Origin: a virus
Virus record (IMG/VR): IMGVR_UViG_3300022689_000474
Location: 64,001 to 128,000 of that record
Length of the DNA: 64,000 nucleotides
Reading direction: 5' to 3' (one strand)
Position 1 is the stretch's first letter; each line of letters starts with the position of its first letter. This document shows positions 6,661 through 41,200 of this stretch, one piece after another. Made by a program: the position numbers and the translations under genes. The notes beneath the pieces are model-generated. The model made no database searches and had not been told where the DNA came from. It was given only the letters and a program-made list of their open reading frames with translations.

Positions 6661-7115
6661 TAGATCTAAAGTTAGAGAATGGTGATATTCAGTTCTCAGA
6701 TACTAATTACAGAGATTCTATATATATTCCCGGTTCTACTTCTGAGACGTATAATGATTTAATAACTGAGAGTGGAGTTGAAGTGGCCGATAAATTATTT
6801 AAAAGATTGATAATAACTCCTCTTGGTCATATCACCTTAAGAGTATTACATGATATAGGGACAGCCAATATAGATTTCAATATAGGTAATGGAATATATC
6901 AAGAGTTATCCCAACCATTAAATATAAATCTAGTCAATAAAGCTTATAAACATATAAGTCACGCTATTAAATTTAAACCTAGAGGAGTCAAAGTTTTATC
7001 TATAGATGTATTAGTACCTTCATTTGAGACAGTACATATATATATATACTATTCTATAAATAAAAAGAAGTATACATATAATAAAACTATGACTTTAACA
7101 GATTATGAAACTTAG
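6657..7115 (+). CDS. Baseplate wedge / sheath initiator, gp25/gpW-like
   Basis: N-terminal DLKLENGDI, RLIITPLG and a G-N-G motif resemble gp25/gpW-type proteins. 152 aa, directly upstream of baseplate J. Confidence 0.7.
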   Translation: MIDLKLENGDIQFSDTNYRDSIYIPGSTSETYNDLITESGVEVADKLFKRLIITPLGHITLRVLHDIGTANIDFNIGNGIYQELSQPLNINLVNKAYKHISHAIKFKPRGVKVLSIDVLVPSFETVHIYIYYSINKKKYTYNKTMTLTDYET

Positions 7116-8175
7116 AAGTGTAAATCAAGTCATATCTTCTTTTAGAAGGTATATCAGTTCTATTGATCCTAAACTATCTCTATTTCCTGCATATGGTAAT
7201 TTATATATAATATTTAGAGCCATATCTTCTGTAATAACTTCACAAGAGTATGATTTCCTTACTGAAATAAATAAATATAATATAAATCTTGCTGAGAAAG
7301 ATATTTTAGATGCTTTAGGAAATCAATATGGAATTGAAAGATTAATGGGGTCTAAAGCAAGTGGAGGTGTATTAATATCAGGTAATACTCAATTTATAAG
7401 AAAAGGAACTATATTAACAAATGTTAGTCAAGACTTAGAATATGAAATAACTAGTAATATAAGGTTAATAAATAATATAGAAACAATGGCACCTGTATTA
7501 TCTCTTATTAAAAGTTCTAGAGCAAATATTAGAGAAGGTACTTATTTATATTCCAGGGCTTACCCTAATCATAATTTTTTAGTTGGTTCCTTTAGAGATT
7601 CTTTTAATACAGTATCCGGTCCAATATTAGGAGGTATGGATAAAGAAAGTGATTCAGATTATAGAAGTAGAATAAAAGGTCATATAAATGGAACTATAAA
7701 TGCTAGTTCTTATGTAAATATTTACTCTAAACTTAAATCTTTAGATTTTGTAGGAGATCTTTTTATTAGAGAACATTGGCCTGTACCAGGTATCGTTACT
7801 ATATATAGTAATATAAAAGATACTTATTTGATAGAAGAAATGAATAAAGTATTATTACCTCTTCGTCCATTAGGTGTTTCTCTTATTTATAAACCTGTAA
7901 TGAAATATTCAGTTAATATAGAGTTAAGTGTAAAGGTTAGTAGTACTGATTCTATAGATACTGTAGATAATTTCTTAGATGGGGAAATACATAACTATTT
8001 CTCTTCTCTAATAATAGGTCAAACATTGAGTAGGGTGGATCTACAATCTTCTTTATCTTCTTCTTTAATTGGAGTAAAGTCTTTAACTATACTTAAACCG
8101 GAGTCTGATGTTATGGTAACTGAAGATGTACTTTTGGTTCCTGGTCAAATTAGAAAATCATTCCATGAAATTTAA
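7105..8175 (+). CDS. Baseplate J / gp47-family wedge protein
   Basis: Motifs AEKDILDALGNQYGIER, KASGGV, GGMDKESDSDYRSRI, PGIVTIY and LRPLGV; 356 aa. Confidence 0.92.
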   Translation: MKLRSVNQVISSFRRYISSIDPKLSLFPAYGNLYIIFRAISSVITSQEYDFLTEINKYNINLAEKDILDALGNQYGIERLMGSKASGGVLISGNTQFIRKGTILTNVSQDLEYEITSNIRLINNIETMAPVLSLIKSSRANIREGTYLYSRAYPNHNFLVGSFRDSFNTVSGPILGGMDKESDSDYRSRIKGHINGTINASSYVNIYSKLKSLDFVGDLFIREHWPVPGIVTIYSNIKDTYLIEEMNKVLLPLRPLGVSLIYKPVMKYSVNIELSVKVSSTDSIDTVDNFLDGEIHNYFSSLIIGQTLSRVDLQSSLSSSLIGVKSLTILKPESDVMVTEDVLLVPGQIRKSFHEI

Positions 8176-20374: not shown

Positions 20375-22747
20375 ATGGTAAGAATATACATAACTAATAG
20401 TTTTCGTTATAAATTTGGAGACTTAAAAGATATATATCTAGAAAAGAATTCTGTTTATATTCTTGATCCTAATAATGTTCAAGATAAAGCTGAATTAGAT
20501 TATATACTTAGTCCTACTTTCCCATATAGACATTATATTACTGTTGAAGGTTATACACATTATCCTGGTTGTGTAGGAACTCCTTCTCCGGGTCCTACTC
20601 CTACCCCTTCTCCTATTCCTGGTCCTAGTCCTACTCCTACTCCTACTCCTGGTCCTAGTCCTACTCCTTCTCCAGGGCCTTATCCAGGACCAGGACCTAG
20701 TCCTTATCCTGGACCCAGTCCCTCTGATCCCTGTAGAATATCAATACCGATAATAGGAACATTACCATCATATCCAAGTTTAGGTTGTACAGTAATAACG
20801 ACAGAAGATAAATTAAAGTCATGGAATGGAACAAGATGGATAGAATTTGGGAATAATACAGGAAGTAGTCCAGGTGATAATTGTGTAATACCAGCATTAT
20901 ATGGAGACGTATATAGTAATGGAATAACAAATGAAGTAAATATATCACCAGAAGTAATAATAAATTCTGATATATCTCCAAATGCAAAGATAGAGTTAAG
21001 TAAATTAGAAAGGAATCCTTTAGATAGAATAAACCATGTTGGAGTACAACCTGCTAGTTCTATAATAGATTTTGACGCTAGAGTTAGAACAAATAGATTA
21101 GATCAATTTAGGCCTCCAAATTCAGATATATCATTAAATAATTATAGATTGATAAATCTTGCTGACCCAACAGCTCCTCAAGACGCAGTCAATCTAAGAT
21201 ATTTAAATAGTTCATTATCAAGTATAAACTTTTGTGATTTAATTGGTCCTACATGTGATATAGACCTGAATGGATATAAATTACTTAATGTTGGAGAACC
21301 AATTCATCCAACTGATGGTGTTAATAAAGAATATGTTGATGATCTAGTTGATAGAATAAATGTATTGATAGGGGCTGATGTAGTTTCTACTAGAAATATT
21401 CCTGGTCCTACAGGAACTGGTATGGTAATAGATGGTATCACTATTACTTCTAATATGACTGTCTTATTAGTTAATCAAGATGATGAAAGGATGAATGGAG
21501 TTTGGATAACTAATGGAGGTTTATGGATAAGACATACTGGGGCTAATGAGACTAGTGATTTAAAAGGAGGTCTAGCAGTATTAATAAATAGAGGTGCAGA
21601 ATACCAATCAACAGCATGGATGTTAATGGGTAATGTGGATATGATAGTTGTAGGTGTTTCTTCGCTTAACTTTGTTCAATGGAATGGACTAGCTGTTATA
21701 AATTCAGGAAATGGTCTTTATGAGAATTTAAATACTATACATATTGGTGTAGTTCCTGGAGAATTATTTGCATATCCCGATAGAATAGGTATAGATCCTG
21801 GTTGGGTTGGTCAAGATTCTATTTCTCATGTTGGTAATATAGTTCATGGTACTTGGCAGGCTACCCCTATAGCTGTTGAATATGGAGGTACTGGATCTAA
21901 TAATCCCGCAGGTGCTAGATTAAATCTTAGAGCTGCAGCTAGTGGAGTTAATGGTGATATTACTGCTATTACTGGTTTACTTACCCCTCTTAGTATATCT
22001 CAAGGAGGTACTGGAGCTTGTGATGCACCTGGGGCTAGAACTAATTTACAAGTAGCTGATTGTATTAATGGTGTATCTACTTGTATTACTCAATTACCTA
22101 ACTTTATAGGCCCTTTATTAATAAATCAAGGAGGTACAGGAGCTACTGATGCAGATACTGCTAGATTTAATCTTAGTGCAGCTAAAAGTGGAGCTAATAG
22201 TGATATTACGAGTCTTAATGGATTAACTACTCCTCTTGCAATAAATCAAGGAGGTACTGGAGCTACAGATGTAGCTACAGCTAGAACTAATTTACAAGCC
22301 GCTCAGAGTGGTGTTAATAGTGATATTACTAGTTTGACAGGATTGACTACTCCTATAGCTATAAATCAAGGAGGTACTGGAGCTACAGATGCAGTTACAG
22401 CTAGAACTAATTTACAAGCTGCTCAAAGTGGAGCTAATAATGATATTACTAGTCTGACAGGATTGACTACTCCTATAGCTATAAATCAAGGAGGTACTGC
22501 AGCTACAGATGCAGTCACAGCATTAACAAATTTAAATGGAGTTTCTGACGGTACTAATTTAGGGACAGGTAGTGGTTTATTTGTACAAAAGAATGGAACT
22601 GTATTAGAATTTAGGACTATAAGAGCACAACCTGGAATAACAGTAACAGTAGTTGGGAATGAACTGGTTATAGCGCCGAATTTAACAGCAGGAGTAGGAG
22701 TGACATTAACTACAGTAGGGGACTCTATAGTAATTAGTTCACCTTAA
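20375..22747 (+). CDS. Tail fibre protein 1
   Basis: PLDRINHVGVQPASSIIDF and NLADPTAPQDAVN fibre motifs, VLLVNQDDERMNGVW, 40-aa GGTGA repeats and a Pro/Thr linker. Confidence 0.85.
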   Translation: MVRIYITNSFRYKFGDLKDIYLEKNSVYILDPNNVQDKAELDYILSPTFPYRHYITVEGYTHYPGCVGTPSPGPTPTPSPIPGPSPTPTPTPGPSPTPSPGPYPGPGPSPYPGPSPSDPCRISIPIIGTLPSYPSLGCTVITTEDKLKSWNGTRWIEFGNNTGSSPGDNCVIPALYGDVYSNGITNEVNISPEVIINSDISPNAKIELSKLERNPLDRINHVGVQPASSIIDFDARVRTNRLDQFRPPNSDISLNNYRLINLADPTAPQDAVNLRYLNSSLSSINFCDLIGPTCDIDLNGYKLLNVGEPIHPTDGVNKEYVDDLVDRINVLIGADVVSTRNIPGPTGTGMVIDGITITSNMTVLLVNQDDERMNGVWITNGGLWIRHTGANETSDLKGGLAVLINRGAEYQSTAWMLMGNVDMIVVGVSSLNFVQWNGLAVINSGNGLYENLNTIHIGVVPGELFAYPDRIGIDPGWVGQDSISHVGNIVHGTWQATPIAVEYGGTGSNNPAGARLNLRAAASGVNGDITAITGLLTPLSISQGGTGACDAPGARTNLQVADCINGVSTCITQLPNFIGPLLINQGGTGATDADTARFNLSAAKSGANSDITSLNGLTTPLAINQGGTGATDVATARTNLQAAQSGVNSDITSLTGLTTPIAINQGGTGATDAVTARTNLQAAQSGANNDITSLTGLTTPIAINQGGTAATDAVTALTNLNGVSDGTNLGTGSGLFVQKNGTVLEFRTIRAQPGITVTVVGNELVIAPNLTAGVGVTLTTVGDSIVISSP
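20579..20731 (+). repeat. Pro/Thr/Ser/Gly low-complexity linker (PGPSPTP-type repeats)
   Basis: Imperfect CCTGGTCCTAGTCCTACT repeats. Confidence 0.9.
21875..22545 (+). repeat. About six tandem 120-bp (40-aa) fibre repeats, INQGGTGATD..TAR.NL.AA.SG.N.DITSL.GLTTP
   Basis: Units start at 21875, 21995, 22121, 22241, 22361 and 22481. The last copies are nearly identical at DNA level. Confidence 0.92.
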
Positions 22748-22753
22748 TAAATA

Positions 22754-22768
22754 TATATAAATATCAAT
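22754..22768 (+). promoter_or_regulatory. TATATAAATATCAAT element containing TATAAATA
   Basis: Intergenic, upstream of fibre 2. An identical 15-mer lies at 62014-62028. Confidence 0.4.
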
Positions 22769-22793
22769 AAATATATAGATATACATAAATACC

Positions 22794-25700
22794 ATGGTAG
22801 AAATCTTTATATTAACAGGATTCCAACACATATTTGGAAGTAAAAATGTATTTTTAGAATCAGGTACGACGTATTATTTAAGTTTAGATGGGGATAGAGA
22901 AGAATTAGCATGGATGTTAAGTTCTAATTTTCCTTATAGAAATAGAATAAATATTCGTCTAACTCCAGCTGTAGTATCTGCTTTAGGTACAAGCGGGAAT
23001 TCCTCTTTAGTACAATTCTCTACTCCACCATCTAATCCATCTCCCGGAGATATGTATTTTAATACTGTCTCTAGAAGACCTTATGTATGGGATGGTTCTG
23101 AATGGGTTGATCTTACACAAAGTGGAACAACTAGTAGTAGTATAATACCTCCATTAGAGGGAGATATTATAAGTTCTGGGTTTGATAATAATGCTCAGAT
23201 AGCTCCCGGAGTTATTACAAATAATGATATCGCTGCAACTGCGGCTATATCACTTAATAAATTAGAAACTAATCCTCTTAATAGAAATAATCATTTTGGT
23301 ACTCAGCTTTCTTCTACTATCTCTGATTTTGTTGATAGAGTAAGACAAGAAAGAATAAATGAGATGGCCATCCCGGGTGGTAATCTCAATATGAATAATT
23401 ATAGGTTAGTTAATTTAGCTCCTGCAATGATGGATCAGGATGCAGTTAACTATGCTCAAGCTCTAAATATGATAGAAGGGATTACAGATTTAAATAATTT
23501 TGTAGGTCCTTTAAGATTAGATCAAGGGGGTACTGGCATTACCGCTAATAATGCTATAGAAGCATTAAATGCTCTACAAGGTATTGGTGATGCTACTAAT
23601 TTAGGAGGAGCAGCAGATGGAGCAAGAGTATATTCTCATAAGAATATAAATACTGGTGCTGTACCTTCAGTATTAAATTTTAGAAGGGTAAGAGGAGGTT
23701 TAGGAATAGAAGTATTTGAAGCCGGTAATTATATTGAAATTGGTTTAGGTTCGGCAGATGTATTAGATATAAATACATCATTGGGAGGTTATCCAGTAAT
23801 GATTGAAAAAGGAGGTACTGGTGCTATGGAACCTTTAGGTGCTAGATTAAATCTTGGAGTCGTAGGTAATGCTGAAAATACTGTGGCTCCTACTTTAGCA
23901 ATAGCTACAGTATTTCAAGAGAAAGTTGGTGATATATTAAGATTTAGATCTCTACAAGAAGGCTTGGGTATTGATCTAGATCAAAATTTAGCTATTGATA
24001 GAATAAAAATATCTGTTAGAGAAAATGATTTATGTTTACAAAATCTTAATGGTGCTTTAGAGTTAAATTCTACTCAAGTAGCTGGTCAACTTCCTATATC
24101 TAAAGGAGGTACTGATGCTGAAACTCCTTTAGAGGCTAGAAATAATCTAGCAGCAGTTGGAGATGCAATATCTCTAGGAGGTGTTTCTATATTAGGAGCC
24201 CCAACTAAAGATTTTACAGGTCCTGATCCTACAGTACTAAGATTTAAAGGTCTAGTTACAGATCCTGCTCTTCCATTAATAGTTTTAGATGATTCAGATC
24301 CTAATCAAATATCTATTGAATTTGATCCTTCTCAACTTGATATTAGTCTTACTACTGGAGATTTAGATGCTACTACTAGATTAGCTGGGGTTGTACCCAT
24401 TGCTAGTGGTGGTACTAATGGTACTACTGTAGGTGAAGCTAGAGTTAATCTAGGTCTTATTTATAAAGTACAAAAAGTACTTGGATCAACGGGACAATCA
24501 TTAGTTCCTGCTACTAACCCTTTAGTACTTGATGCTGGTTTAGGTTATGCCATGAATCTAAGGGGTCTTAGACCGGGTAATGGTATTACTATAGAACCAT
24601 CTTTAAATGGTCATGATTTATTAATATCTACGAATATACCAGATAATTATGATATTGCTAATATAGGAACTGGTACAGGAACTTTTTATCATAATAGAAT
24701 TGGAAATACTTTTAATTTTAAAACTCTTAAAGTGGGACCCGCAGGTGGTCTAATTATTCAGAATAATCTTCAAGAAGTAGTTGTAACTCCAAATATAGCT
24801 AATGCTGTAAATATAGGAACAGGTACTACTCTACTTGCACCTTTTACTTTACCTGGAGCAGAATTAAGATTTAGAAGTATAAATTCTTTGACTGGTTCAT
24901 TAGAAGATGATGGTATTGATATATCTACAAATGGTAATGAAGTATTATTAGCTACACATATAGCTAATATTTCTTCTGTAGGTACAGGTTTTCATTTACA
25001 TCAAGATCTATTAGTAGGTCCAGGTAATGATGTTAAGTTTAAAACTGTATTGACAGAAGGTTTACTACCTGGCATGTCTATAATAGATACAGGGGATGAA
25101 TTAAGGTTCCAAGCATTTCTGGCTGATGCTTTATCTGTAGGTATAGGTACTTCTATATTAAAAACTATTACTCCAATAACTCAACCTGGTACTGTATTGG
25201 AATTTAAATCTATTACTGAAGGTCCTGGTATATCTATAGTTGAATTACTAGATGAAGTTCAGATAAATAATAGAGTAGTTAGTGTAGGAGGATTTACTTC
25301 TATATTATCTCCTACTGTTATTAATCCTGGTGATGCTATTGAGTTTAGATCTCTTAGAGCTGGTCCTGGTATTCAAATAACTACAGTAAACCCTAATGTT
25401 ATAGATATAGCTTCGACTATACCTGAATATCTTATTGCTAATGTTGGTGGAGGTGTTGGACAAGTATTTAGAGATAGAGTGGGAAATACTTTTAATCTCA
25501 AAACTCTTAGACCTGCTGTTGGTGATAGAATTAGAATAATTAATGAAGCTTCTCTTATAACTTTAGATATAGATGAAGCTAATTTAGATATTAATAATTT
25601 AGGAGGAGTTCCTCTTACTATTGCTGGGGGAGGTACTGGTGCTACTACAATTCCAGGTATTAGAGATAATATAAATGTAGTCTTTGATGTTATGGATGCA

Positions 25701-26432
25701 GGAGCAGCTGGGGCAGCAGCTATTAGTATTATAGATAGTGTTTATAATTCAGTAGGGGAAGGTAAGATAGTTGAATTGAAGAAATTAATGGCGGGTAATG
25801 ATATTCTTATCAGTGAAGTAGGATCTGATTTAGTAATCGAATCTACTGCCGTTATGACACCTATACCAGGTCTTAATATAGGGACTGAACCTGGAGAAGT
25901 ATTTGTAGTAGGATCAGAGACTACTGGTCAATATGAATATAAGACTATTGGTTATGAAGCAGTCAATCCTGGTATAGAGATAGTTAATAATGCAGATTCA
26001 ATTATTTTGCAACCATATATCGCTTCTGTAAATGAAGTGGCAGGTGTTGGTGAATCTTTAATTAATACTCCTGTAGCTCTCCCTATAGCTACTCCAAATA
26101 CTACTGTTGAATTTAAGAAGATAACTGCAGAAGCTAATACACCTATTACAGTACAGACTGTAGGTTCAGTATTAGAAGTAGGTATCTCTCAATTAGGTGC
26201 TTTTGTTGATGGAGTGGCTGGTGTTGAGACCGCTGTTGGTAGTGGTATTTATGAATATAATGTCAATCATAATTTAAATGTTACCGGTACACAGATGATT
26301 GTTCAAGCTAGTACTGCTGCAGGACAAGTGGCTCAGATTATTTCTATTGCTTCTGGAGGGGCTAATACGGCTACTATTAGGACAAATAGTCCCGGACCCT
26401 TAAACTTTAGAATAATTAAAGTCGGTCCTTAA
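22794..26432 (+). CDS. Tail fibre protein 2 (paralog of fibre 1)
   Basis: Shares the N-terminal domain and the PLNRNNHFGTQLSSTISDF block with fibre 1. Many N(I/V)G.G...F(R/K)(S/T)L..G.GI.I repeats and GGT motifs. Confidence 0.85.
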   Translation: MVEIFILTGFQHIFGSKNVFLESGTTYYLSLDGDREELAWMLSSNFPYRNRINIRLTPAVVSALGTSGNSSLVQFSTPPSNPSPGDMYFNTVSRRPYVWDGSEWVDLTQSGTTSSSIIPPLEGDIISSGFDNNAQIAPGVITNNDIAATAAISLNKLETNPLNRNNHFGTQLSSTISDFVDRVRQERINEMAIPGGNLNMNNYRLVNLAPAMMDQDAVNYAQALNMIEGITDLNNFVGPLRLDQGGTGITANNAIEALNALQGIGDATNLGGAADGARVYSHKNINTGAVPSVLNFRRVRGGLGIEVFEAGNYIEIGLGSADVLDINTSLGGYPVMIEKGGTGAMEPLGARLNLGVVGNAENTVAPTLAIATVFQEKVGDILRFRSLQEGLGIDLDQNLAIDRIKISVRENDLCLQNLNGALELNSTQVAGQLPISKGGTDAETPLEARNNLAAVGDAISLGGVSILGAPTKDFTGPDPTVLRFKGLVTDPALPLIVLDDSDPNQISIEFDPSQLDISLTTGDLDATTRLAGVVPIASGGTNGTTVGEARVNLGLIYKVQKVLGSTGQSLVPATNPLVLDAGLGYAMNLRGLRPGNGITIEPSLNGHDLLISTNIPDNYDIANIGTGTGTFYHNRIGNTFNFKTLKVGPAGGLIIQNNLQEVVVTPNIANAVNIGTGTTLLAPFTLPGAELRFRSINSLTGSLEDDGIDISTNGNEVLLATHIANISSVGTGFHLHQDLLVGPGNDVKFKTVLTEGLLPGMSIIDTGDELRFQAFLADALSVGIGTSILKTITPITQPGTVLEFKSITEGPGISIVELLDEVQINNRVVSVGGFTSILSPTVINPGDAIEFRSLRAGPGIQITTVNPNVIDIASTIPEYLIANVGGGVGQVFRDRVGNTFNLKTLRPAVGDRIRIINEASLITLDIDEANLDINNLGGVPLTIAGGGTGATTIPGIRDNINVVFDVMDAGAAGAAAISIIDSVYNSVGEGKIVELKKLMAGNDILISEVGSDLVIESTAVMTPIPGLNIGTEPGEVFVVGSETTGQYEYKTIGYEAVNPGIEIVNNADSIILQPYIASVNEVAGVGESLINTPVALPIATPNTTVEFKKITAEANTPITVQTVGSVLEVGISQLGAFVDGVAGVETAVGSGIYEYNVNHNLNVTGTQMIVQASTAAGQVAQIISIASGGANTATIRTNSPGPLNFRIIKVGP

Positions 26433-26525: not shown

Positions 26526-26957
26526 ATGAATGTTATACTATTTGAATTACTTAATAAAATAGATTATTTAAGTAGAAAACCTCTTAAGATAGAAATAGGA
26601 AGTGAATTGGCTAGGGATCAATATGTATCTCTTCATAAAAGATTCCCTGATATGCCAGATGATAAGAAGTTGGGTATAGCTAACTTATTACAGAATTATA
26701 ATCTTAGAGACTTTACAGATTTAGAATTAAAGACATTATCTGAATTAAGATTAGATCTATTATTTCATAATCCTAATCAATCTATTGAAAGACAAATATT
26801 AAGGGGTAAAAGATTATATGATACTGGTTCTCCTAGAGTTTATAGATTATTATATGATAATAATGTTAATGCGGAGAATATAGAATATATGAGAGCTACA
26901 ACTTCTTTTACTCCTATTACTATTATTAAGAATTTAGCAGATATTTATATTTATTAA
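26526..26957 (+). CDS. Hypothetical protein
   Basis: 143-aa ORF preceded by TATATAATA at 26491. Confidence 0.75.
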   Translation: MNVILFELLNKIDYLSRKPLKIEIGSELARDQYVSLHKRFPDMPDDKKLGIANLLQNYNLRDFTDLELKTLSELRLDLLFHNPNQSIERQILRGKRLYDTGSPRVYRLLYDNNVNAENIEYMRATTSFTPITIIKNLADIYIY

Positions 26958-26974
26958 TAAGAGGTATTTAAATT

Positions 26975-29900
26975 ATGAGTGATCCACTTTATGAATCTCA
27001 ATTAGCTACATTAAACCTAGAAGATCCACCTATTGAACAGGGTCCAGATGTAACTTGTTATAAATATGTATTGGTTCCAGACTATCTTGTAGATTTCTAT
27101 AAGAATAATATTAAAGATAGGTCTAAAGTTTTAATTAATGAAGAAATGGATGGAACGGGGGATAAGAAAATAATAATGGTTGATATTACTATAGATAATT
27201 TTGTCCTCTTTGAAGCTCTTAATTATTTAGCAGAAGAAATAAGTGGATTTTCTACATTTACTGATGTAAGTAATGAAGAACAATATATAATATTAGAAGA
27301 AATCTTAAATAATCCTTCTTATAAAAATGCTGTTTCAGAATATATAAATAAAAAAATCTCTGAAACAACTAAAAGTCTTGGATTGAGTAATGATATAAAA
27401 GTGACATATAGATTAATAGGATTTGAAGCTCTTTATACTTTTTATAACTTGGATAGTATTTTTAAGAAAAGTGATATAGGAGCGACTCTTACTATAGATC
27501 AAGATCTCTTAGATTTTTCTACTCGATTACTTAGAGAAAGTATCAAAGGTTTAAGACTATTTACATTTGACCCCCCATTAGTAGAGAAAAAAAATCCTGA
27601 TGATAGTTTTAGATATGAAGTAATACCTCTTCATTTATTTAAGAATGCTCAAGTAGGTTTTGAGTATGATATTACGTTTAATATAGATTATGTACCTCAA
27701 GAGGGCTGTCAAGAACCTCAAGCTGAAACTGCCCCTACTCAACCAACTCCAACTATTACAGCAGAAGAAGCTACAGTACCAATAGATGCTACTTCTATTA
27801 GTCCGATAGAAGATGAAGAGGTAGTATCACAAACTACTCCTAATGGATCTCTTTACTGTCCTACTGATGAACAGGTTGAGTTAGAAATAGATACCTTAAG
27901 AAAAAAAGCAATTCTTTCATATGAAACTCTAATATCTGAAGCTGAAAGTTTTACATTCACAGATTCAGTATCGGAGTTATATAACAATATTAAGCCATCT
28001 TTAGTTAATATAGATAAAGAGAATTTATTAGATTCTATATTTTCTAAAACTATTGGAGAAGATACTACTCTATCTAAATTAATTCAAGCACAAGACAATC
28101 TAAATCAAATAATACTTCAAATAACAAATGACAGTATTCCATCATCAACTGATCTTGATAAAAACAAGTTAGAGACTTTATACAACCATATTCAAAATAT
28201 TATAGATATACATCGACAGTATCTAACTTTGATAAATTATAAGGATAATTGTGAAAATCCAGAAGTAAATGATAAACTTATTGAACCTGAACCTGTTGAA
28301 CCTACAGAGAAACCAGAAGTACCTCAAGAAGAAGTAGAAGTAGATGCAGGTCCTTGTGAAATATTCCCTAATAAAGGAAATGATGATTGGGGTATTAAAT
28401 TTACTTATAAAGAAAGTCCTAATATAAGTGGATTACTTAGGGCTAGTTGTGAAGGTACTGCCGGTTCATTCTATGATGATACTGGAGAGAATGATGATAT
28501 TGAAGAAGAAGTTCTTCTTAATAATCAAGAAGAAGGCGGAGAAGGATCAGAAGATAGACAAGCTTTAGCAGAAGCTACAATAAACACAATAGAAGAGAGA
28601 GAACAAAGAATAGCAGAAGAAGGTAGTGCGGTATCAGGGCCAAGTACTCCTGAGTTATCATCATCTTCTGGAGGTTATTCATCAGGAGGAGAATTACATG
28701 AATGGGAAATGACTTTATTACCCGCCATGAGATCAGTAGTTCCAAAAAGTCCTGGTATGGATGTTCCTAATGTAATGCCTGGTTTACAATTCCAGATACG
28801 TTCAAATATAGCTAAACATAGAGTACCTGGAGGACAAGCTATATATCAGAATTTAGGTGTAGATTCTGTCATGGTAACTATAGTAGGTTGTTTTACAGGT
28901 GATGGGGGGTATGCTACAGAAGCTTCCTTGGCTGGAAGGGGAGAGAGTGTAACTACTGCTTCTCCAATACTTTCAGAGGGTGATAATCCTTTCATAAATT
29001 TAAGTAGAGAACTAAGTGATGATGAAAAAACCCAACTTGAGAACTTTCCTTTAGAAACAGATCCCCAGAATGCATTAAATACATTTAATAGTTCTAATGT
29101 TACAGATATGAACTTTAATGGTTTATCTAGTATATCTACAAGTTCTATGAAACCTACAGGAAGGGGAGGAAGAATATGGGAATTAGATGGATGCCCCTGT
29201 GATCCTGATATGGGTAACTCTTATTTATCTAATAGTGACCAACCATATATAGTAGGTAGTGGAAGTAAAGTAATACCTCAATACTTTAATGGACCTGATT
29301 GGAATCAGAGACCAACGATGTTTACATTATATGAACAATTAAGGAGATTAGATTCATATCATGAATTTACTTCTTTTTATAAAATGGCTATAGAACAAGG
29401 AAGAGAATTAGAAATAGAGATAAATTTAGATAAATATAGTAATGGTTTAGAATCTCAAAAGAATTTATATAAGAAGTATGGATTAGATTCTACATCATCA
29501 GTAAAACATATGGATAGTGATTGGGGTCCTTTAAGGAATGGTGCTAATGGTAATCCTAGATTCAAAGGACTTATTAAAGCAATGGAAGTATATCATTCTA
29601 AAGGGGATAGAACATGGTATTTAATGCAAGTAGAATTAACGGATTTAGGTCTTACTACTGATATCCCTTTAAATCTTACTAAGATAGTACAAGAGGCAAG
29701 TGATCAAGCCATACAAGAAGCAGGTAGTGAAGATGATAGTGGATTTACAACAGAGTCGAATAGATTACTTGACTGTTTACTTATGGAACATCCTGAATAT
29801 TCTGTGGATCAATTTAATGATGTACCTAATAGAGCTTATTATAGATCAAGTACTAGTGATTCTAATAAAAATAATAGAATGGTATGGTCTACTACAACTG

Positions 29901-32900
29901 GACAAGGTATGTTATATACTGTTGAGAAAGTAAAAGTAGCTAAGCAAGAAATTAAGTATGCTAAAGCAATTGGTTCAAAGACTCTATTAGAACCTAGAGA
30001 AATGATAGGAGCTCTTATAGAAGGAGGAAGAAGTAGTAGATGGAAGTTATCTGATATAAGATCTTTTAAGAAATATTTACATTTATTAAATACTGGAGCT
30101 ATTTATGCCATTCCAAATTCTGCTGCGGGAAATTGTGGTAATCAAGCCCCTAGACCGAGAGAAGAAGGAAATGAACTTGAAGTTGCTCTTGGACCTTCTG
30201 AAGCTGTAGGAGATAATACATTAAGATATGGAAATATTCAATCTATTCCTTGGTTGAGTGAATTACTTGAGGGTGTTGACTCGAAGGATCCTAATCATTT
30301 AGGTTATTGGAAACCTAAACAATGGAAAACAGAAGAATTAGGAGGTGGAGAAAGTGAAAACGTTACTAAACTTTTCTCCTCTTTAAATGAGATTTATAAT
30401 GATGAAGATCTAACCGATTCTAATATTGATACTGCTTGGTTTATGGGATATAGATTAAAACTTATTAAAACTGGCCCATTACAAGGCTATGGACTTATTA
30501 GAAGAAGTAATAACGCTTTTACAATATTAAACCCTGCCCAAGTTATTCTTAATATTACTGAAGGTGAAGGCACTGGTAATTGGAAAAACTTTAATGTTGA
30601 AGGAGACTTAGAAAAAGTCATAAGTAATGTTTGTTTAAGAAGAAATCCTAACGGAATACTTGATAGGATGTCTACTGGTTATGGAAGTGATGATCCACAA
30701 CTTATAAAAGAACAAGCTGAGTCTTGTATGACCTTTTTTACTCAGGGTGATATAGCTAATTGGCAGTCTTCTTCTATAGATACTGGAGATCCATATAGGA
30801 TTGGAGATGGAGAATTAATCAGAAGACTTGTTGCTAAAGTTTTACTAAGTTGTGGGAGTCTAGTTGTAGATGTAGTTGGTGGATTGTTTTTATCAGTAGC
30901 AGCTGGTTTATTAACTGGTGGTGTTTTAGCTTTTATAGGAGCAGTCTTTACTCTTTTTACTGCGGTTGTTGCTTTAATTGATTGTCTTAAAGCAAGTTGG
31001 GATATAATTCAATACTTAAGGTTAGAAGATAAAAGTAGAATTTCTGTACCCAGTAATCAGGAATTACAACTAGATATTCTCTTTGCATTAGTTCCTTTCG
31101 TTCCCCAATTAGGTGCTTTTAAAACATTTGTTAATGCGGCTCGAGGTGCTTTTCAAAAGATTAAAACTGTTGCTCAAGCCTTTGAAAAGATACCTATATT
31201 AGGTAGTGTAATAGGCGTCGTTAAAAAAATGTATAAAGCACTTGTTGATTATGTTAAACCTTCTCCAGGCACAGAGGCACTTCTAAATAGAATCTCTGAT
31301 TTTCTTGAAGATGTAAGATTGAAAATGGGGAAAAAACCAGCTCCTACTACTCCTGGTACTCCTGGTTCTAGTACTCCTGGTACTCCTGGTTCTAGTACTC
31401 CTGGTACTCCTGGTTCTGGTAGTACTCCAGGTATACCTTCATTAAAATCAGTAGATGATTTTATAGATGAAATTCCTACTAATATAAGGCAGAGTATTGG
31501 AGAAAATAATCTACAAAGCTTTTTTAATGATCTTGCAAATAAATTTGGTATTCCTAGTAATGCAACTCCAGGTATTACCATTGATGGTGATCTCTTGTAT
31601 TCATGGCATGATGCTGCAGGTGTTCGTCATGAATTAACTCTTTTTCCTAGTGCTGAGTCAGGAAAGGTTCGTATAAAATATGGAAGGGGTCCTGATATAG
31701 GTCAAGTAAAAACTGTAAGTGATGGAGTATATAATGTAGATGATATAGATAATATTATTACTAATCCCCCTCCTAATAATACTCCTCCAGGTACTACCTC
31801 TCCCCCTGTAAATAAAATCTCTGTACAAGATTTTAAAAATCAAGTTACTTTATCACCACAAGTTGTTGATTCTATAAATGCTAATCAACTAACATCAGAT
31901 CAATTTATAGACAGTCTAATAAATAAATTTAATATATCTCAAGATGCTAATTTCACCACTCTAGCAGATGGTTCAATTATTGCTGATTGGGAAGTTAATG
32001 GAGTTAGAAAAAGGCTTAAATTATCTCCTACTAATAATGATAATTTTAAAATAGAATATCTTGCACCAGATGGAACTAATAAATCGATAGAGTTAAATCC
32101 ACAAGAATTAGATTATGTTGATGTAGATACAGGTACGCTTATTTTTCCTTCCTCTCCCCTTCCTCCTTCGTCTCCCCTTCCTCCTTCCCCTCTACCAGAT
32201 GTTCCCCGACATTCTGGTACTGGATTAGAGATTCTTAAACTTAACGGAGGAAATGCGTTAGCACCTGTTAAAGGAGATATTATAAATGGATTAAGGTTTC
32301 CTGAAACTGGTACTATTAAAGATATTCCAACTCCAGATGCATTAAAAGTTCCTGGTAATGGCGTAACACAATATGGTAGCTATGGTGCAAAATTAATGGA
32401 ATGGACTGATGCAATGGGAGTAGATAGAACGGTAGCAGTAGTTGCTTACACAGATGGTTCAGTTACAGCGGCTGAAGTCACTTTAGATACTTCTGGACAG
32501 ATTGTAAGTGTTGGTAAAAAAGTTAATACTTCTAATTCTGACTTTAATGATTTAACAGACTTTTTTAACATTCCTAATTATGGTGGAAATCTTAATATAG
32601 CAAATGTTCCCCCTCATCCTAATCGTACTGGTGTTCAAATCCAACGTCCTACAATACAGAAAGCTATAGATGGTCTAGGTATCAATGCTGGTGCTACAGT
32701 AAATCCTATTGTACATACAGATGGAGCGGGAATTCCATATCAAGGATATGAATTTACTTGGACAGATGCTAATAATATAACCAGAAAAGTAGAAATAGCG
32801 GAATCTTCTAGCACCAGGATGCTTGTAAAAGATCCTATAACAGGTGTTTGGAGTCAACAACCTCATGATAATCTCTTTGTTCCAATTCAAGCAAGTGATG

Positions 32901-34807
32901 GAACTAATCCAAATAATATAGTTTCAAGTGGAGATATTATTCATAACCAACCTGAGATGTCAAGAGAGATAGCAGCGGAGTTTAATTTACAACAAGGTGG
33001 GGGAGCTACAGATTTAGTTATTACACCTCAATCTTTTTCTTGGAAGGATAAAGATGGTATTCCAAGAACAGTTTCTATTTATAATGGTGATGACCCTACT
33101 GCTGGATTATTACAATATAGACTTAAGATTGATGAGGGTCCTAATGCTGGAACAACATATTTGATTGATCGTAGAGCTGGTGGTTCTGTCGTAGCGACTC
33201 GTCCAGATGGTTCAACAAATAATTTAACTTTAGATGATTATAGAGCAGAAATAAATCAAGTACCCTCCACCACTCAAACTACTACTTCTCCTCCTAACTC
33301 TAGTCCGGGTTCGACTCCCAATCCCAATCCCAATCCTCCCAATCCTAATCCTCCTCAAACTCCACTTACAACTCAAACACCTGCTAGTAATGCTTATTAT
33401 GATGTAGATCAGAGTCAATTAGTTAACTTAATACCGGACCAAGCAGTTAGAAACAATGTAGTACAAGGTATGAATATTCCAAGTAATGCAACACCACAAT
33501 ATTCAGCTAATGGTAACAGTATAGACTATACTTGGATTGATGGTGATACTACTCATCTTGCAAGAGTAATTAAAAATCCAGATGGTACTTATAGTGTTTC
33601 TCGTAATATTGTTAATAGTACGGCTTCAGTGGGTTATACCGTTGATAATGTAACGGAACAAACAAACTTAACAAATCAATTGTTGAGTAGTAATAATACT
33701 GGATTATCTTCTAGCTTACCTGGGAGTCAAAACCCTCCTGGTACTTCTCCCTCAAATACTCCTGATAATACTCCTAGTACTGAAGGTACTACTATTCCTG
33801 ATAATACTCCTAGTAATACTCAACAGACTGGCCCTGAAAATTCTATAACTGCTGGCCAAAATTCAAGGCCTAATGGAAATTCAGTAACAAAGGATTCTTT
33901 ACCAGATAATGTTCAATCACAAATTCCTGATGGAGCTGAGATTATAGAAACTCCTCAAGGTGATATAGTTTGGAAACAGGATAACCCGGATGGTACAGTA
34001 ACTTGGACAAGGGTTGATCCTAATAACCCTAATCCTACTCCAGGTTCTACTACTCCTGATAATGCTGGAACTTTAGATCCACAGAATCCTCCTCCTGATA
34101 CTTCGGGGACAACTATTCCTGCTTCTTCTCAGACTAATCCTATTCTTCCTGATAATAGTGTACGTCAAGGTTCTTCCTTGACTGACCAAGAGGGTATAGA
34201 TCTTAGCAATAGAATTTTCTTCCTTAAACATGAGAATGGTTCTCTGATTTATAACCGTACAGAGGTAGAGACAGTACAACAATTAGGTGATGGAAGTATA
34301 AAGATAGTTACAAAGCCAATACCTCTTGGGCCTGACGACGCCAAGTATCAACAAGATGTGTTTGTGTATGCATCTGATGGATCCTTCATTTCTTTTGATC
34401 CTTACTACATTCTTCAGGATGGTAGAAAGATTTTAAAGTTTGAATGGTTAAGAACTTCAGGGACAACTATTCCTTCTCAGACTCCTAATACTAATATACG
34501 TCAAGCTTCTTCATTGACTCCACAAGAGGAAGCAGATCTTATTAATAGGATTCCAGATCTTATTTCTGATAATGACTCATTGATATTTTATGATGACGCT
34601 GTAGATACTATACAACAATTAGATGATGGAAGAATGATAATAATTACACAAAAAATATCTATTGCTAGTGGACCTATTGATCCTCTTGCACCTGCAAATA
34701 CTGCGTTTATTCATGGAGAATATTTCTTGGCACCAGATGGGACGGTGTCGACCCGTAATTTTATATATACTCTTACAGACGGGACACTAAGGACACGTGG
34801 ATCTTAA
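26975..34807 (+). CDS. 2610-aa virion protein: split tail-tube-initiator (gpU / DNA-circularisation-N-like) fold, TM hairpin and repetitive Cys-free C-terminal region
   Basis: RSNIAKHRVPGGQAIYQNLGVDSVMVTIVGCFTGDG, then GRELEIEI and RFKGLIKAMEV...WYLMQVELTD. Hydrophobic segment ~30854-30985. GAGGT Shine-Dalgarno. Confidence 0.6.
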   Translation: MSDPLYESQLATLNLEDPPIEQGPDVTCYKYVLVPDYLVDFYKNNIKDRSKVLINEEMDGTGDKKIIMVDITIDNFVLFEALNYLAEEISGFSTFTDVSNEEQYIILEEILNNPSYKNAVSEYINKKISETTKSLGLSNDIKVTYRLIGFEALYTFYNLDSIFKKSDIGATLTIDQDLLDFSTRLLRESIKGLRLFTFDPPLVEKKNPDDSFRYEVIPLHLFKNAQVGFEYDITFNIDYVPQEGCQEPQAETAPTQPTPTITAEEATVPIDATSISPIEDEEVVSQTTPNGSLYCPTDEQVELEIDTLRKKAILSYETLISEAESFTFTDSVSELYNNIKPSLVNIDKENLLDSIFSKTIGEDTTLSKLIQAQDNLNQIILQITNDSIPSSTDLDKNKLETLYNHIQNIIDIHRQYLTLINYKDNCENPEVNDKLIEPEPVEPTEKPEVPQEEVEVDAGPCEIFPNKGNDDWGIKFTYKESPNISGLLRASCEGTAGSFYDDTGENDDIEEEVLLNNQEEGGEGSEDRQALAEATINTIEEREQRIAEEGSAVSGPSTPELSSSSGGYSSGGELHEWEMTLLPAMRSVVPKSPGMDVPNVMPGLQFQIRSNIAKHRVPGGQAIYQNLGVDSVMVTIVGCFTGDGGYATEASLAGRGESVTTASPILSEGDNPFINLSRELSDDEKTQLENFPLETDPQNALNTFNSSNVTDMNFNGLSSISTSSMKPTGRGGRIWELDGCPCDPDMGNSYLSNSDQPYIVGSGSKVIPQYFNGPDWNQRPTMFTLYEQLRRLDSYHEFTSFYKMAIEQGRELEIEINLDKYSNGLESQKNLYKKYGLDSTSSVKHMDSDWGPLRNGANGNPRFKGLIKAMEVYHSKGDRTWYLMQVELTDLGLTTDIPLNLTKIVQEASDQAIQEAGSEDDSGFTTESNRLLDCLLMEHPEYSVDQFNDVPNRAYYRSSTSDSNKNNRMVWSTTTGQGMLYTVEKVKVAKQEIKYAKAIGSKTLLEPREMIGALIEGGRSSRWKLSDIRSFKKYLHLLNTGAIYAIPNSAAGNCGNQAPRPREEGNELEVALGPSEAVGDNTLRYGNIQSIPWLSELLEGVDSKDPNHLGYWKPKQWKTEELGGGESENVTKLFSSLNEIYNDEDLTDSNIDTAWFMGYRLKLIKTGPLQGYGLIRRSNNAFTILNPAQVILNITEGEGTGNWKNFNVEGDLEKVISNVCLRRNPNGILDRMSTGYGSDDPQLIKEQAESCMTFFTQGDIANWQSSSIDTGDPYRIGDGELIRRLVAKVLLSCGSLVVDVVGGLFLSVAAGLLTGGVLAFIGAVFTLFTAVVALIDCLKASWDIIQYLRLEDKSRISVPSNQELQLDILFALVPFVPQLGAFKTFVNAARGAFQKIKTVAQAFEKIPILGSVIGVVKKMYKALVDYVKPSPGTEALLNRISDFLEDVRLKMGKKPAPTTPGTPGSSTPGTPGSSTPGTPGSGSTPGIPSLKSVDDFIDEIPTNIRQSIGENNLQSFFNDLANKFGIPSNATPGITIDGDLLYSWHDAAGVRHELTLFPSAESGKVRIKYGRGPDIGQVKTVSDGVYNVDDIDNIITNPPPNNTPPGTTSPPVNKISVQDFKNQVTLSPQVVDSINANQLTSDQFIDSLINKFNISQDANFTTLADGSIIADWEVNGVRKRLKLSPTNNDNFKIEYLAPDGTNKSIELNPQELDYVDVDTGTLIFPSSPLPPSSPLPPSPLPDVPRHSGTGLEILKLNGGNALAPVKGDIINGLRFPETGTIKDIPTPDALKVPGNGVTQYGSYGAKLMEWTDAMGVDRTVAVVAYTDGSVTAAEVTLDTSGQIVSVGKKVNTSNSDFNDLTDFFNIPNYGGNLNIANVPPHPNRTGVQIQRPTIQKAIDGLGINAGATVNPIVHTDGAGIPYQGYEFTWTDANNITRKVEIAESSSTRMLVKDPITGVWSQQPHDNLFVPIQASDGTNPNNIVSSGDIIHNQPEMSREIAAEFNLQQGGGATDLVITPQSFSWKDKDGIPRTVSIYNGDDPTAGLLQYRLKIDEGPNAGTTYLIDRRAGGSVVATRPDGSTNNLTLDDYRAEINQVPSTTQTTTSPPNSSPGSTPNPNPNPPNPNPPQTPLTTQTPASNAYYDVDQSQLVNLIPDQAVRNNVVQGMNIPSNATPQYSANGNSIDYTWIDGDTTHLARVIKNPDGTYSVSRNIVNSTASVGYTVDNVTEQTNLTNQLLSSNNTGLSSSLPGSQNPPGTSPSNTPDNTPSTEGTTIPDNTPSNTQQTGPENSITAGQNSRPNGNSVTKDSLPDNVQSQIPDGAEIIETPQGDIVWKQDNPDGTVTWTRVDPNNPNPTPGSTTPDNAGTLDPQNPPPDTSGTTIPASSQTNPILPDNSVRQGSSLTDQEGIDLSNRIFFLKHENGSLIYNRTEVETVQQLGDGSIKIVTKPIPLGPDDAKYQQDVFVYASDGSFISFDPYYILQDGRKILKFEWLRTSGTTIPSQTPNTNIRQASSLTPQEEADLINRIPDLISDNDSLIFYDDAVDTIQQLDDGRMIIITQKISIASGPIDPLAPANTAFIHGEYFLAPDGTVSTRNFIYTLTDGTLRTRGS
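31348..31419 (+). repeat. Three 24-bp tandem repeats (TACTCCTGGTACTCCTGGTTCTAG) encoding a TPGTPGSS linker
   Basis: Read directly from the sequence; the third copy has one mismatch. Confidence 0.95.
34100..34807 (+). repeat. Diverged tandem duplication of a 354-bp (~118-aa) terminal module
   Basis: ACTTC(G/A)GGGACAACTATTCCT begins at both 34100 and 34454. Both copies share RQ.SSLT.QE..DL.NRI and QQL.DG. Confidence 0.85.
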
Positions 34808-38284: not shown

Positions 38285-41200
38285 ATGACTTTTCTTAATA
38301 CTCAAAATTTAGTAGGTCTAGATAATTACTTTGACTTACTTATAAGTGAAGCTAGTACTTCTTTAAATGCTGTTAGTGATCTTTCTATAATAGATTTTGC
38401 AGAAAATATAGTATTTAATGGGGAAGCTTATCTTTATACTCAACAAAAAGCTGTTCTTAAATCTTTTTATGGGGAACCTCTTACTCCTGAAGAAGAAGAT
38501 ATCTTAATAAATTGGAAGAATAGGGAGAAGAGTAATTGGGTTCCTAATAGAACTTATAGAGATATGATTTTGGAAGTAGGTAGAGGTGGTTGTCCTTATA
38601 TAGAAGATAAAGTTATTACTAATAAAGGTACTCTTAAATATAAAGATTTAATTGATAATAAGAGTTCTATATTTACCTTCTTAGAAAAAGATAATACTAT
38701 TGGTCTGACTTCTAATATACTTACATGGGATAAAGGTTTATGTGAATGTGTTCAAATTACTACTAAAACAGGTCGAAAGGAAATAGTTACTTTAGATCAT
38801 CCTTACCTAATTTCTTTAGGAGACCCCAATTCATATAAATGGCTTAGAGCTCAATACCTTACGAGGGAAAATAAATTATATTTACCTATAGGATTAAAAC
38901 TCTTTGGTTCAGATGATTCTTTAGATGAATCTTTTATCTTAGATATAGTTCGAGATATATCTAATATATCTTCTTCTATTATAGAAACTATAGAACTATC
39001 TACTGAATATCTTCACTCTTTATCTTTATCTTATATATTATCCTATTTACCTTTCCAATTAGATTATCTACTTACAGTAAAAAAGGAATCTTTATATCTT
39101 AAATCTGAGGTTCTACCTGGTGATATATTAGATTTCTTACAAAGAGAATTAAGTAAATGGGGTGTTATATGTATATGTGATTATAAATCAAATATCTTTA
39201 TTATAAAAGATTTAAATTCATTTATTAATTTATTAGAATTACTTAGATCTCATAAAGATAAAGACCATAAAATAAATAATTTATTTAACTTATTGGAATT
39301 TAATATTTCTCAAGGTAAATGTTATGACAATATTCCAAGATATAAATATGGAGAAATAGAATATTTCTTAGATGAAGTTTATAGTGTTATTAAAGTTGGT
39401 AAATTACAGACACTTGGATTAGAAGTTGTTAAATCTAATACTATAGTTAATTCATTTATATCCCATAATTCTAAGAGTTTGATTGCTTCTATTATCTCTT
39501 TATATGAATTTAATAATCTTATATCTTTAGAAGACCCCGCTCGATATTATAATTTAATATCTAATGATCCTATAGCGATATTCTTAATAGCTACTACTGC
39601 TACTCAAGTTAAAGAAACTTTATTCTTGAAACTTAAAGGATATTTAAGAGGTAGTGATTTCTTTAGGAATTTAGAAAATAAAAAGAAAATAGAAGTATTA
39701 GCTGATCAAGTTAGATGTCCTGATAAGAATGTTGCTATATATGCTAAACATACTAATTCAGATGCTTTAGTTGGTTATAACTTGAAATGTATGATTCTTG
39801 ATGAAGTAGCTAGATTCTCTAATAAAACTAGAGAAGACGGTAAAATTGTTTCTTTAGCTGATACTTTATGGAGAAATGTAGGTAAAGGTTGTTTTCATAT
39901 GAATTCTTATATTTATACTAATAAAGGATTTATAAAAGCTATTGATTTACTAAATATTTATCAATCAGTAGATTATCTTAATGATATAAAGATTTTAAGT
40001 TATTCAAATGATTCATTTAAATATCTAATATGGGCAGATGATATAGATATATGGAATAATGGAATTCATCCTACTATAGAACTTATAACTGAAAATGGTT
40101 ATAACGAAAGAGTTACATATAATCATCCTTTTTTTATTTATAGACAAGGAGATGTAGAACCAAGCTGGATTGAAGCAGAATTTATTAATGAAGGAGATTA
40201 TATCTCTTTACCAAAATCTTTATTACCTTCTGATAGATCTATAAATTATTTAGAAGAAGAATATACAAACTTTTTTGAATTCCTAGCATATATATTTAGT
40301 TTTGGAACTTGGTTTGTAAATCATGGTCGAATACAAGATCATGCTATAGAAATAAGAAGAACTGTTCATAAAGAAATAATACAAGTTATTCAAGATTTAT
40401 TGAAAGATATAGAAGGTTATAGATTTCATAATAATAAAGATTCAACCTCTGGTAGTAAGTATAGAATTTTCTTTGATAAAAAAAGTAAAGGTTATCAGCT
40501 ATTAAAAGAACTTACAGATAGAGGATATTTAATTAATTCTTATAGATCTTTCTATAATGATATTCCTGAATTTATTGATACCCTACCTCTAGCAGAATTA
40601 AAGTCTTTTCTTAAAGGATATTATACTTCTAATTGTACCTTCTTTGATTTATTAAATCCTTCTGGTATTACTATTAAATTACCTCAAGAAACTGAAAGTG
40701 CTGCTAGAAGAATACAACGTTGTTTATTACTCTTTGGAGTAATCTCTTCTATTAAAATAGAACCTGTCAGGATAAATAAAGATAAGTTTATTTTTAATGC
40801 TAATGTTGTTTGTATAAAAGGAGTTTATAATATCTCTTTATTCTTACAATCTATTGGTCTTTCTACTTCTGATTTTGTTACTATGAAAAAAAGAATAGAT
40901 AGATATATCTCTTTAGATAAAGATAAAGATAAAGATAAATATTCTCTTCCTTTAAATATAGAACAATGTATCGACAATAGTAATAAGATTGATTCTATAA
41001 ATAATCTTAGATGGGAGAGAGTTTCTAATATTATAAACCATCCTAAAACTATTACTATTGGTTTAGAAGTTAGAGAAAGTGGTCTCATTTGTAATAGTAT
41101 ATTGAGTCATAATACTCAAAGATTCGCAGAAGAAGGAAGAAGGGTAGCGATATCATCAGGATGGTACGAAGGAGACCCTATACAAAAATTAAGAGAGAAG

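Follow-up and report, generated by a model that had tools for sequence, protein, structure and literature searches.

A giant phage protein in which a predicted tail-tube fold is followed by a cysteine-flanked hydrophobic hairpin and a cysteine-free repeat tail

A 64,000-nucleotide (nt) stretch of viral DNA (hereafter the window; bases 64001–128000 of the 152-kb IMG/VR virus record IMGVR_UViG_3300022689_000474, CheckV completeness 82%) encodes a protein of 2,610 amino acids (aa), here called P0001, in which a core with a well-supported tail-tube fold is followed by a hydrophobic hairpin flanked by cysteines (Cys) and by a long Cys-free chain of repeat domains. By alignment, P0001 fuses two modules that are separate, overlapping genes, gp111 and gp112, in the Microcystis phage Ma-LMM01. 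We tentatively favor, with a confidence that falls a little short of even, the reading that P0001 is a baseplate protein of the tube-initiator type and that contraction deploys its hairpin into the envelope of the host; that P0001 is not a toxin carrier forms part of this reading.

The core was modelled with AlphaFold2 (aa 565–960, using an alignment of 42 family members), and its two conserved pieces pack as one domain with a predicted local distance difference test score (pLDDT) of 80–94, the ~135-aa insert between them being disordered. When this model was compared with 48,161 representative PDB chains using VIA-align, the best 50 rows, which were inspected, were all tail-tube-fold proteins, with the tube initiators of baseplates and Dit proteins ranked first. 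The matches, which cover model residues 1–334, included chains from Milano (8fqc_U1; Z 8.1, root mean square deviation 3.5 Å, 110 residues aligned), Pa193 (9b45_S; Z 8.1), diffocin (8v3w_G; Z 8.0–8.1), Mu gp43 (9ki1_0; Z 7.8), pyocin R2 (6u5b_h; Z 7.7), Pvc7 (9qgl_7A; Z 7.5), and the ‘baseplate-initiators’ chain of A-1(L) (8kea_P; Z 7.1). Applying VIA-align to the top 1,000 chains from Foldseek gave the same order, with the addition of E217 and Afp7 (6rao_G; Z 7.5), and placed ordinary tube proteins at Z 5.6–6.7. Foldseek itself returned no row at E ≤ 0.001 for the core model against the PDB, though baseplate chains were enriched, while against BFVD it recovered family members and then proteins labelled ‘Dit-like phage tail protein N-terminal domain’ and ‘DNA circulation, N-terminal’. 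A preliminary description of the window had proposed a gpU/DNA-circ-N-like tube fold in two pieces, at nt 28700–28910 (aa 576–645) and 29350–29645 (aa 792–890); both pieces coincide with stretches conserved in HMMER alignments and with confidently modelled strands and helix, and the fold itself is upheld by the AlphaFold2 core and by the VIA-align and BFVD matches, with initiators ranked first. From the model, we infer that P0001 may act as ‘the’ tube initiator of the phage.

The core defines a large protein family. A profile-free, exhaustive search of 1.84 billion cluster representatives with aa 570–1408 as the query identified 136 relatives at E ≤ 1e-3, including 37 at E ≤ 1e-30, and the family comprises at least 136 clusters at 50% identity. 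Nearly all of the relatives match in two pieces (HMMER), with a gap of 11–313 aa between them. The closest relative, P0002 (L006; GCA_037027005.1, JBANER010000076.1), has 41% identity over aa 386–1338, and as its 1,272 aa run to the end of a 4.9-kb contig, its length and short tail are truncation artefacts. Within the N-terminal extension, aa ~386–574 are common to some relatives and no relative was detected for aa 1–385, nor did an ESM Atlas feature search with the N-terminal 560 aa give a usable match. Behind the core, helices are predicted at aa 901–955 (AlphaFold2 model; pLDDT 50–66).

Among the libraries of known families, PHROG 37225 (unknown function) is the only match to P0001 (E = 1.9e-31). 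P0001 has no match in Pfam at E ≤ 1, including to the LysM profile, and its tblastn matches are to the phages Ma-LMM01 and MaMV, with no match to the gene by megablast among 50,697 phage records. Searching PDB sequences with the whole protein (phmmer) gave a chance match only (E = 0.55), and the family profile found no solved chain in the same set. Neither DNA_circ_N (PF07157) nor Phage_P2_GpU (PF06995) was found in the whole 152-kb record at E ≤ 10, and profile and jackhmmer searches of the record detected no paralogous tube-fold protein.

The relationship between the core and the hairpin is most apparent in the phages in which they are encoded by different genes. In Ma-LMM01 (L002:11260-14782), gp111 (526 aa) ends just past the core and is overlapped by 17 nt by the next gene, gp112 (652 aa), the product of which starts with a Gly/Ala-rich hydrophobic segment, followed by GD-x-RQY...A-I-D-A-V-x-I-L-A-P; by alignment, this hairpin-plus-motif module is the equivalent of P0001 aa 1285–1383. 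The split form is present in Ma-LMM01 and nine metagenomic contigs (L010-L017, L019), with the core gene overlapping the hairpin gene by 11–20 nt, and the fused form, a single gene of 1,126–1,215 aa, in five contigs (L018, L020-L022, L025) and P0072. The occurrence of the same pair in split and fused forms is classic evidence that both parts work together. In each of the nine split contigs, the two genes meet at an ordinary overlapping stop/start and the second has its own ATG, and on this ground a programmed frameshift between gp111 and gp112 was dismissed. In one and the same Microcystis-phage clade, the hairpin is bracketed by Cys in the fused forms and has no such Cys in the split ones.

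The preliminary description had also reported a Cys-flanked hydrophobic hairpin at ~30850–30985, which is present between Cys1293 and Cys1337 and recurs across the family. Using a strict pattern (Cys, 28–75 residues with ≤3 charges and a mean hydropathy >1.2, Cys), the hairpin was found in 19 of 137 family proteins, and a hydrophobic 19-residue window follows the core in 34 of the 109 proteins with two core halves. A quick maximum-likelihood tree built from the core has the hairpin-bearing proteins scattered over many clades and groups P0001 with P0002 and P0003, which both bear the hairpin. Well-supported branches force at least 11 changes in hairpin state, and none of 500 label shuffles was as clustered, in a tree that is unfinished and carries long-branch warnings and for which truncated or split genes were scored as hairpin ‘absent’. 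The motif that follows the hairpin, LDILFALVPFVPQLGAFK in P0001, has the conserved form [LI]D-x-[LV]-x-x-L-x-P and is also found behind the hairpin in P0003, P0011, P0072, P0090, and Ma-LMM01 gp112. Judged from the family sequences, the Cys-flanked hairpin is a conserved feature and not a chance stretch, and its hydropathy suggests that it may insert into a membrane.

The hairpin also marks a boundary in the distribution of Cys. In agreement with the preliminary description, which gave about 15 Cys for the N-terminal half and none for a stretch of 1,273 aa, P0001 has 15 Cys; Cys1337 is the last of them, and the 1,273 residues that follow contain zero, for which a simple calculation gives a probability of ~2e-5 at the genome-wide Cys content of 0.83%. 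Amongst 33 hairpin-bearing proteins, Cys accounts for 0.92% of residues up to and including the hairpin (221/24,026) and 0.07% after it (9/12,236), and this depletion holds although the tails are mutually unalignable. Against the mean of 0.83%, the phage also has two giant open reading frames (ORFs) with zero Cys, like the tail of P0001, which encode 5,484 aa (window 45005–61459, +) and 4,838 aa (G000:C1:16006-30522, +), the former with a 360-aa stretch in common with Ma-LMM01 gp120.

Beyond the hairpin and its motif, a helical stretch and a TPG linker, which like LDILFALVPFVPQLGAFK had been noted previously and is present at aa ~1463–1497, precede the first of seven repeat domains (Table 1), the copies being separated by linkers rich in Pro, Thr, Ser, and Asn. 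Repeats 1 and 2 are related by BLAST at E = 9e-8. Part of the TPG linker is encoded by a 24-nt tandem repeat (31344–31421; 3.2 copies, 96% matches), and short, near-perfect tandem repeats likewise make up linker DNA at 32146–32192, 33316–33354, and 33762–33815 (periods of 18, 15/6, and 18 nt, respectively), so that linker length could change by slippage. A model of repeat 1, built from an alignment of the other copies, has two helices on a five-stranded sheet (pLDDT 72). Its best fold matches (PDB, the Fbxo7/PI31 FP domain at Z 5.6; ESM Atlas, template modelling score ~0.5) are both at noise level, and a guess that the repeat is a BamE/BLIP/PepSY-like domain was not borne out by the fold search. 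Homology searches with aa 1480–2610 (candidate lengths of 622–1980 aa) and, among longer candidates, with a profile of the repeat returned no relative, an ESM Atlas feature search with repeats 1–2 had no usable match, and a local hidden Markov model of the repeat matched only P0001 among the family proteins and the proteome of the phage.

Tail lengths in the family range from 170 to 1,340 aa. The preliminary description had suggested asking whether homologs are the same in front of the hairpin and different after it, and the answer depends on distance. Distant relatives have the core in common and tails after the hairpin that cannot be aligned, but among the Microcystis phages, whose clade alone offers close relatives, the tail is conserved like the core (65–86% and 71–84% identity to Ma-LMM01, respectively), which argues against cassette swapping. 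For P0001 itself, the 1.84 billion cluster representatives searched contain no close relative. On these alignments, tails diverge fast over long distances and are not exchanged as cassettes.

Judged by homology and gene order, the ORF is genuine and belongs to the virion module of a phage with a contractile tail that is a relative of Ma-LMM01. The record has a G+C content of ~30%, at which an open frame of 7.8 kb cannot be due to chance, and a Shine-Dalgarno-like AAGAGG (26959–26964) lies 10 nt before the ATG. The gene is inside a long, same-strand block of virion genes (tail/baseplate), between the fibre genes and the terminase and ~36 kb downstream of the sheath and tube genes. Upstream of the window, the record encodes a tail sheath (PHROG 30392, E = 4e-148), a lysin/peptidase, and a 282-aa tube protein homologous to the Ma-LMM01 type; within the window, there are a Baseplate_J gene (7105–8175), 19 kb upstream of P0001, genes for Ig-like fibre proteins (20375–26432), and, downstream, an intein-bearing large terminase gene (1,294 aa; 38285–42169, +). 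Gene order and several of the proteins match Ma-LMM01 and the Microcoleus phage My-WqHQDG. The small gene immediately upstream of P0001, for which there is no Pfam or PHROG match, has counterparts of ~140 aa before the core gene in the loci of relatives L032 and L033 as well. No tape measure gene was found in the phage by Pfam or PHROG, the sole matches being C-terminal lysin pieces.

Table 1 Features of the P0001 gene and its upstream neighbor in the window
Feature	Residues (aa)	Position (nt)	Strand	Basis or remark
143-aa gene, conserved family neighbor upstream		26526–26957	+	31% identity to the 140-aa gene preceding the My-WqHQDG homologue
Whole ORF (P0001), 2,610 aa, uninterrupted	1–2610	26975–34807	+	ORF call and PHROG 37225 match
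N-terminal extension	1–574	26975–28696	+	BLAST to P0002, P0013, and P0018 begins at aa 386–404
Tube-fold half A, long beta-hairpin	575–650	28697–28924	+	Conserved in 136 representatives; pLDDT 87–93
Insert within tube fold, predicted disordered	651–784	28925–29326	+	pLDDT < 50; length varies across family
Tube-fold half B, helix and strands	785–895	29327–29659	+	HMMER-conserved stretch; AlphaFold2 model
Post-core region, helix-rich start	896–1284	29660–30826	+	Alignable only with closest relatives P0002, P0003, and P0011
Gly/Ala-rich hydrophobic hairpin	1285–1345	30827–31009	+	Flanked by Cys1293 (nt 30851) and Cys1337 (nt 30983–30985)
Post-hairpin motif LDILFALVPFVPQLGAFK	1366–1383	31070–31123	+	Conserved form given in text
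TPG/S linker	~1463–1497	31361–31465	+	Overlaps 24-nt tandem repeat
Seven repeat domains, ~90–120 aa each	1510–1605, 1635–1731, 1759–1880, 1886–1993, 1986–2098, 2149–2249, 2300–2347 (last partial)	31466–34054	+	Invariant Trp; W-x-D-x-x-G in most copies
Two copies of a different ~115-aa repeat, extreme C-terminus		34112–34804	+	39% identity, E = 1e-19

Several observations were made on the neighboring genes. The proteins encoded at 20375–22747 and 22794–26432 (both +) have many tail-fibre and head-decoration PHROG matches, reflecting repeated Ig-like modules, and one GA-module match. With identities of 45% and 27–33%, respectively, both match a single 1,452-aa protein of My-WqHQDG, such that one gene there corresponds to two here. 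The terminase intein has a LAGLIDADG homing-endonuclease domain (Intein_splicing, E = 1.8e-7; LAGLIDADG_3, E = 1.2e-4), the PHROG matches of the terminase are confined to aa 955–1202, and the Ma-LMM01 terminase aligns to it as three separate pieces. A 130-aa ORF just before the Baseplate_J gene (6268–6660, +) has a weak, sub-threshold match (E = 0.011; 16.7 bits, cut-off 27.6) to PBECR1, a phage Barnase-EndoU-ColicinE5/D-RelE-like nuclease.

A mechanism can be proposed for P0001 as an initiator with a deployable hairpin. Mu gp43 (9ki1_0) has been described as the hexamer that initiates the tube, with a helix-rich domain reaching down between the hub and the wedges (PMC11915804), and P2 gpU has been placed as a tube initiator (bioRxiv 10.64898/2026.09.14.750843). 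As in these proteins, six copies of P0001 would form a ring on the baseplate hub and seed the tail tube. By analogy with Mu gp43, the region behind the tube domain would descend between hub and wedges, which would put six hairpins at the lower end of the baseplate, where they would be shielded for as long as the wedges stay together. Upon sheath contraction, with the wedges released, the ring would move with the tube tip into the host envelope, where the exposed hairpins may insert in the host membrane and anchor or extend a conduit for DNA. Outside the cell, under oxidising conditions, a disulfide between the two flanking Cys could keep the hairpin locked. Because a hairpin leaves both of its ends on one side of a membrane, the Cys-free tail would be expected to stay with the ring, outside the cytoplasm, possibly as a flexible tether or an envelope-binding chain. 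The proposal can be widened to a widespread lineage of contractile phages that carries a membrane-penetrating, disulfide-stapled, Gly-rich hairpin on the initiator (fused or translationally coupled) and not only on the tape measure, the hairpin being released at contraction into the host membrane and dragging with it a chain of small domains, Cys-free and quick to evolve, that either works in the periplasm or threads into the cell. Such a hairpin would amount to a new class of deployed ‘pilot’ module in myophages; in this extended form the proposal is rather unlikely.

A number of points weigh against P0001 as an initiator that deploys its hairpin. The Z scores are middling, with VIA-align itself noting that values of 7–8 are common for models without a clear match, and the ranking of initiators over tube proteins hangs on 1–2 Z units. 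Pfam and PDB profile searches connected the sequence neither with DNA_circ_N or GpU nor with any solved chain. The gene is not at the canonical position for an initiator, after the tape measure gene and before the hub/spike genes, and another, unrecognised tube initiator may exist in the phage. Many relatives, including the sister clade P0004-P0010, are without a hairpin, and the genes downstream of the hairpin-less P0006 and P0013, which come from neighboring clades, likewise showed no clear hairpin, one short hydrophobic stretch occurring inside the 154-aa gene after P0013. Membrane insertion is predicted solely from hydropathy, the placement of P0001 in the virion is drawn solely from genes and models, and six tails of 1,270 aa would be without an obvious place in a baseplate.

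The hairpin and the tail are each open to other interpretations. Linkers rich in Pro and Thr, small folded domains, and a lack of Cys are typical of extracellular, surface-exposed proteins, and the fibre genes of the same block are Cys-poor too (the 1,212-aa protein has one Cys). Further, the C-terminal domains of initiators are outside the tube barrel, between hub and wedges, so that a chain can exit outwards, and the tails are as unrecognisable between clades as host-binding parts tend to be. P0001 could on these grounds be an external tether or adhesin, in which six flexible ‘tentacles’ bind polymers of the host surface and the hairpin is a buried element of assembly or oligomerisation that is never deployed. 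This is unlikely, as an uncharged, Gly/Ala-rich hairpin of 45–55 residues conserved over many clades would be unusual for a soluble assembly element, and fold and profile searches detected no carbohydrate- or protein-binding relative of the repeat domain. It is less probable still that P0001 is a purely structural baseplate protein, the extensions of which fill or decorate an enlarged baseplate with nothing deployed or displayed for binding. Tube initiators often bear extra structural domains (LysM, the helix-rich domain of Mu) and the phage has many oversized structural proteins, but a structural role would leave unexplained both the family-wide depletion of Cys, which starts exactly after the hairpin, and the separable, translationally coupled gp112 module.

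Two further possibilities would have the tail leave the virion. Hydrophobic helices and few Cys are traits of tape measure proteins, and the zero-Cys giant ORFs, together with the lack of a tape measure gene identifiable by Pfam or PHROG, would be compatible with a hairpin and tail that are stored in the hub or tube lumen and expelled before the DNA, forming a channel or entering the cell. This is improbable given that the polarity would be opposite to that of known tape measures, in which the C-terminus sits in the hub, and that tube initiators have their C-terminal domains on the outside of the barrel; moreover, to judge from the model of repeat 1, the tail consists of folded alpha/beta domains and not of long helices, and its length varies widely across the family. 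Least probable is a polymorphic-toxin-like cargo, as proposed in the preliminary description, in which the tube-fold protein delivers a C-terminal toxic domain to a host or competitor. The precedent of evolved Hcp, VgrG, and PAAR, which demonstrates that tube and spike proteins can bear C-terminal effectors, and the differing tails of distant relatives would accord with a cargo, but no toxin, pre-toxin, or immunity family was found by Pfam in P0001 or six long relatives, the protein ends in a small domain that is duplicated in tandem, and close relatives are conserved in the tail to the same degree as in the core. The pre-toxin domain PT-TG is matched by one of nine hairpin modules, which is not that of P0001, at the noise level of E = 0.8. 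A phage also has no obvious gain in poisoning a cell needed for its replication, and overall the cargo is weakly refuted.

In comparison with known systems, the nearest counterpart is Ma-LMM01 gp111, a true sequence homologue with 55% and 30% identity over the two core halves and the same synteny beside the terminase. The members of PHROG 37225, to which P0001 belongs by profile and pairwise similarity, are hypothetical proteins of Fukuivirus and MaMV Microcystis phages. The Ma-LMM01-type proteins total ~1,100–1,200 aa versus 2,610 aa in P0001, which has in addition an N-terminus of ~385 aa, an insert of ~135 aa, and a post-core region of ~390 aa, together with an unrelated tail of 7+2 repeat domains. 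The assignment of the core provides the first structural assignment for PHROG 37225 and gp111, both annotated as function unknown, and ties gp112 to gp111 as a partner module.

With Mu gp43, Milano gp25, P2 gpU, pyocin R2, Afp7, and Pvc7, the P0001 core shares the same predicted tail-tube fold (Z 7.5–8.1), which in P0001 may likewise be followed by a helix-rich continuation. Mu gp43 also has a known C-terminal extension with a role beyond tube initiation, to which that of P0001 can be likened: it is a DNA circularisation protein that has been reported to enter the cell, reach the cytoplasm, and circularise DNA (PMC11915804). However, P0001 has no sequence similarity to initiators of the Mu gp43 type, the DNA_circ_N, GpU, and LysM profiles do not match it, its long N-terminal extension is missing from Mu gp43, and the gene positions differ. 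The hairpin and repeat tail have no counterpart among the solved initiators that were compared.

A hydrophobic, membrane-type segment in a protein of the tail core is likewise a feature of the tape measure proteins P2 gpT, T4 gp29, and T5 pb2. The segment of T5 pb2 is considered to make a conduit through the inner membrane. The hydrophobic helices of the P2 and T4 tape measures have been proposed to form such a conduit after contraction (bioRxiv 10.64898/2026.09.14.750843). In contrast to the tape measures, the segment of the P0001 family is attached to, or translationally coupled with, a tube-fold protein, and P0001 has a single, putatively Cys-stapled hairpin followed by folded repeat domains and no long helical ruler. 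P0001 also has no match to a tape-measure PHROG, and its gene does not follow the tube and chaperone genes. There is still debate over how a contractile tail, once its tube is through the outer layers, gets across the inner membrane, with the tape measure as the usual suspect, and the P0001 family would offer another candidate that can be separated genetically. Direct tests are possible, as split and fused forms both occur in Microcystis phages that can be cultivated.

Carriers with a tube or spike fold and a C-terminal extension are also known from type VI secretion, in the form of evolved Hcp (Hcp-ET), VgrG, and PAAR. The extensions of these proteins are recognisable toxins with immunity genes, whereas none is detectable in P0001. 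The parts of P0001, a tube-initiator fold and a predicted membrane hairpin in a tail-core protein, are of known kinds and their combination is new among the papers and libraries searched, as are the split and fused relationship of gp111 and gp112, the rule of Cys depletion in the tails, and the 7+2 orphan repeat tail.

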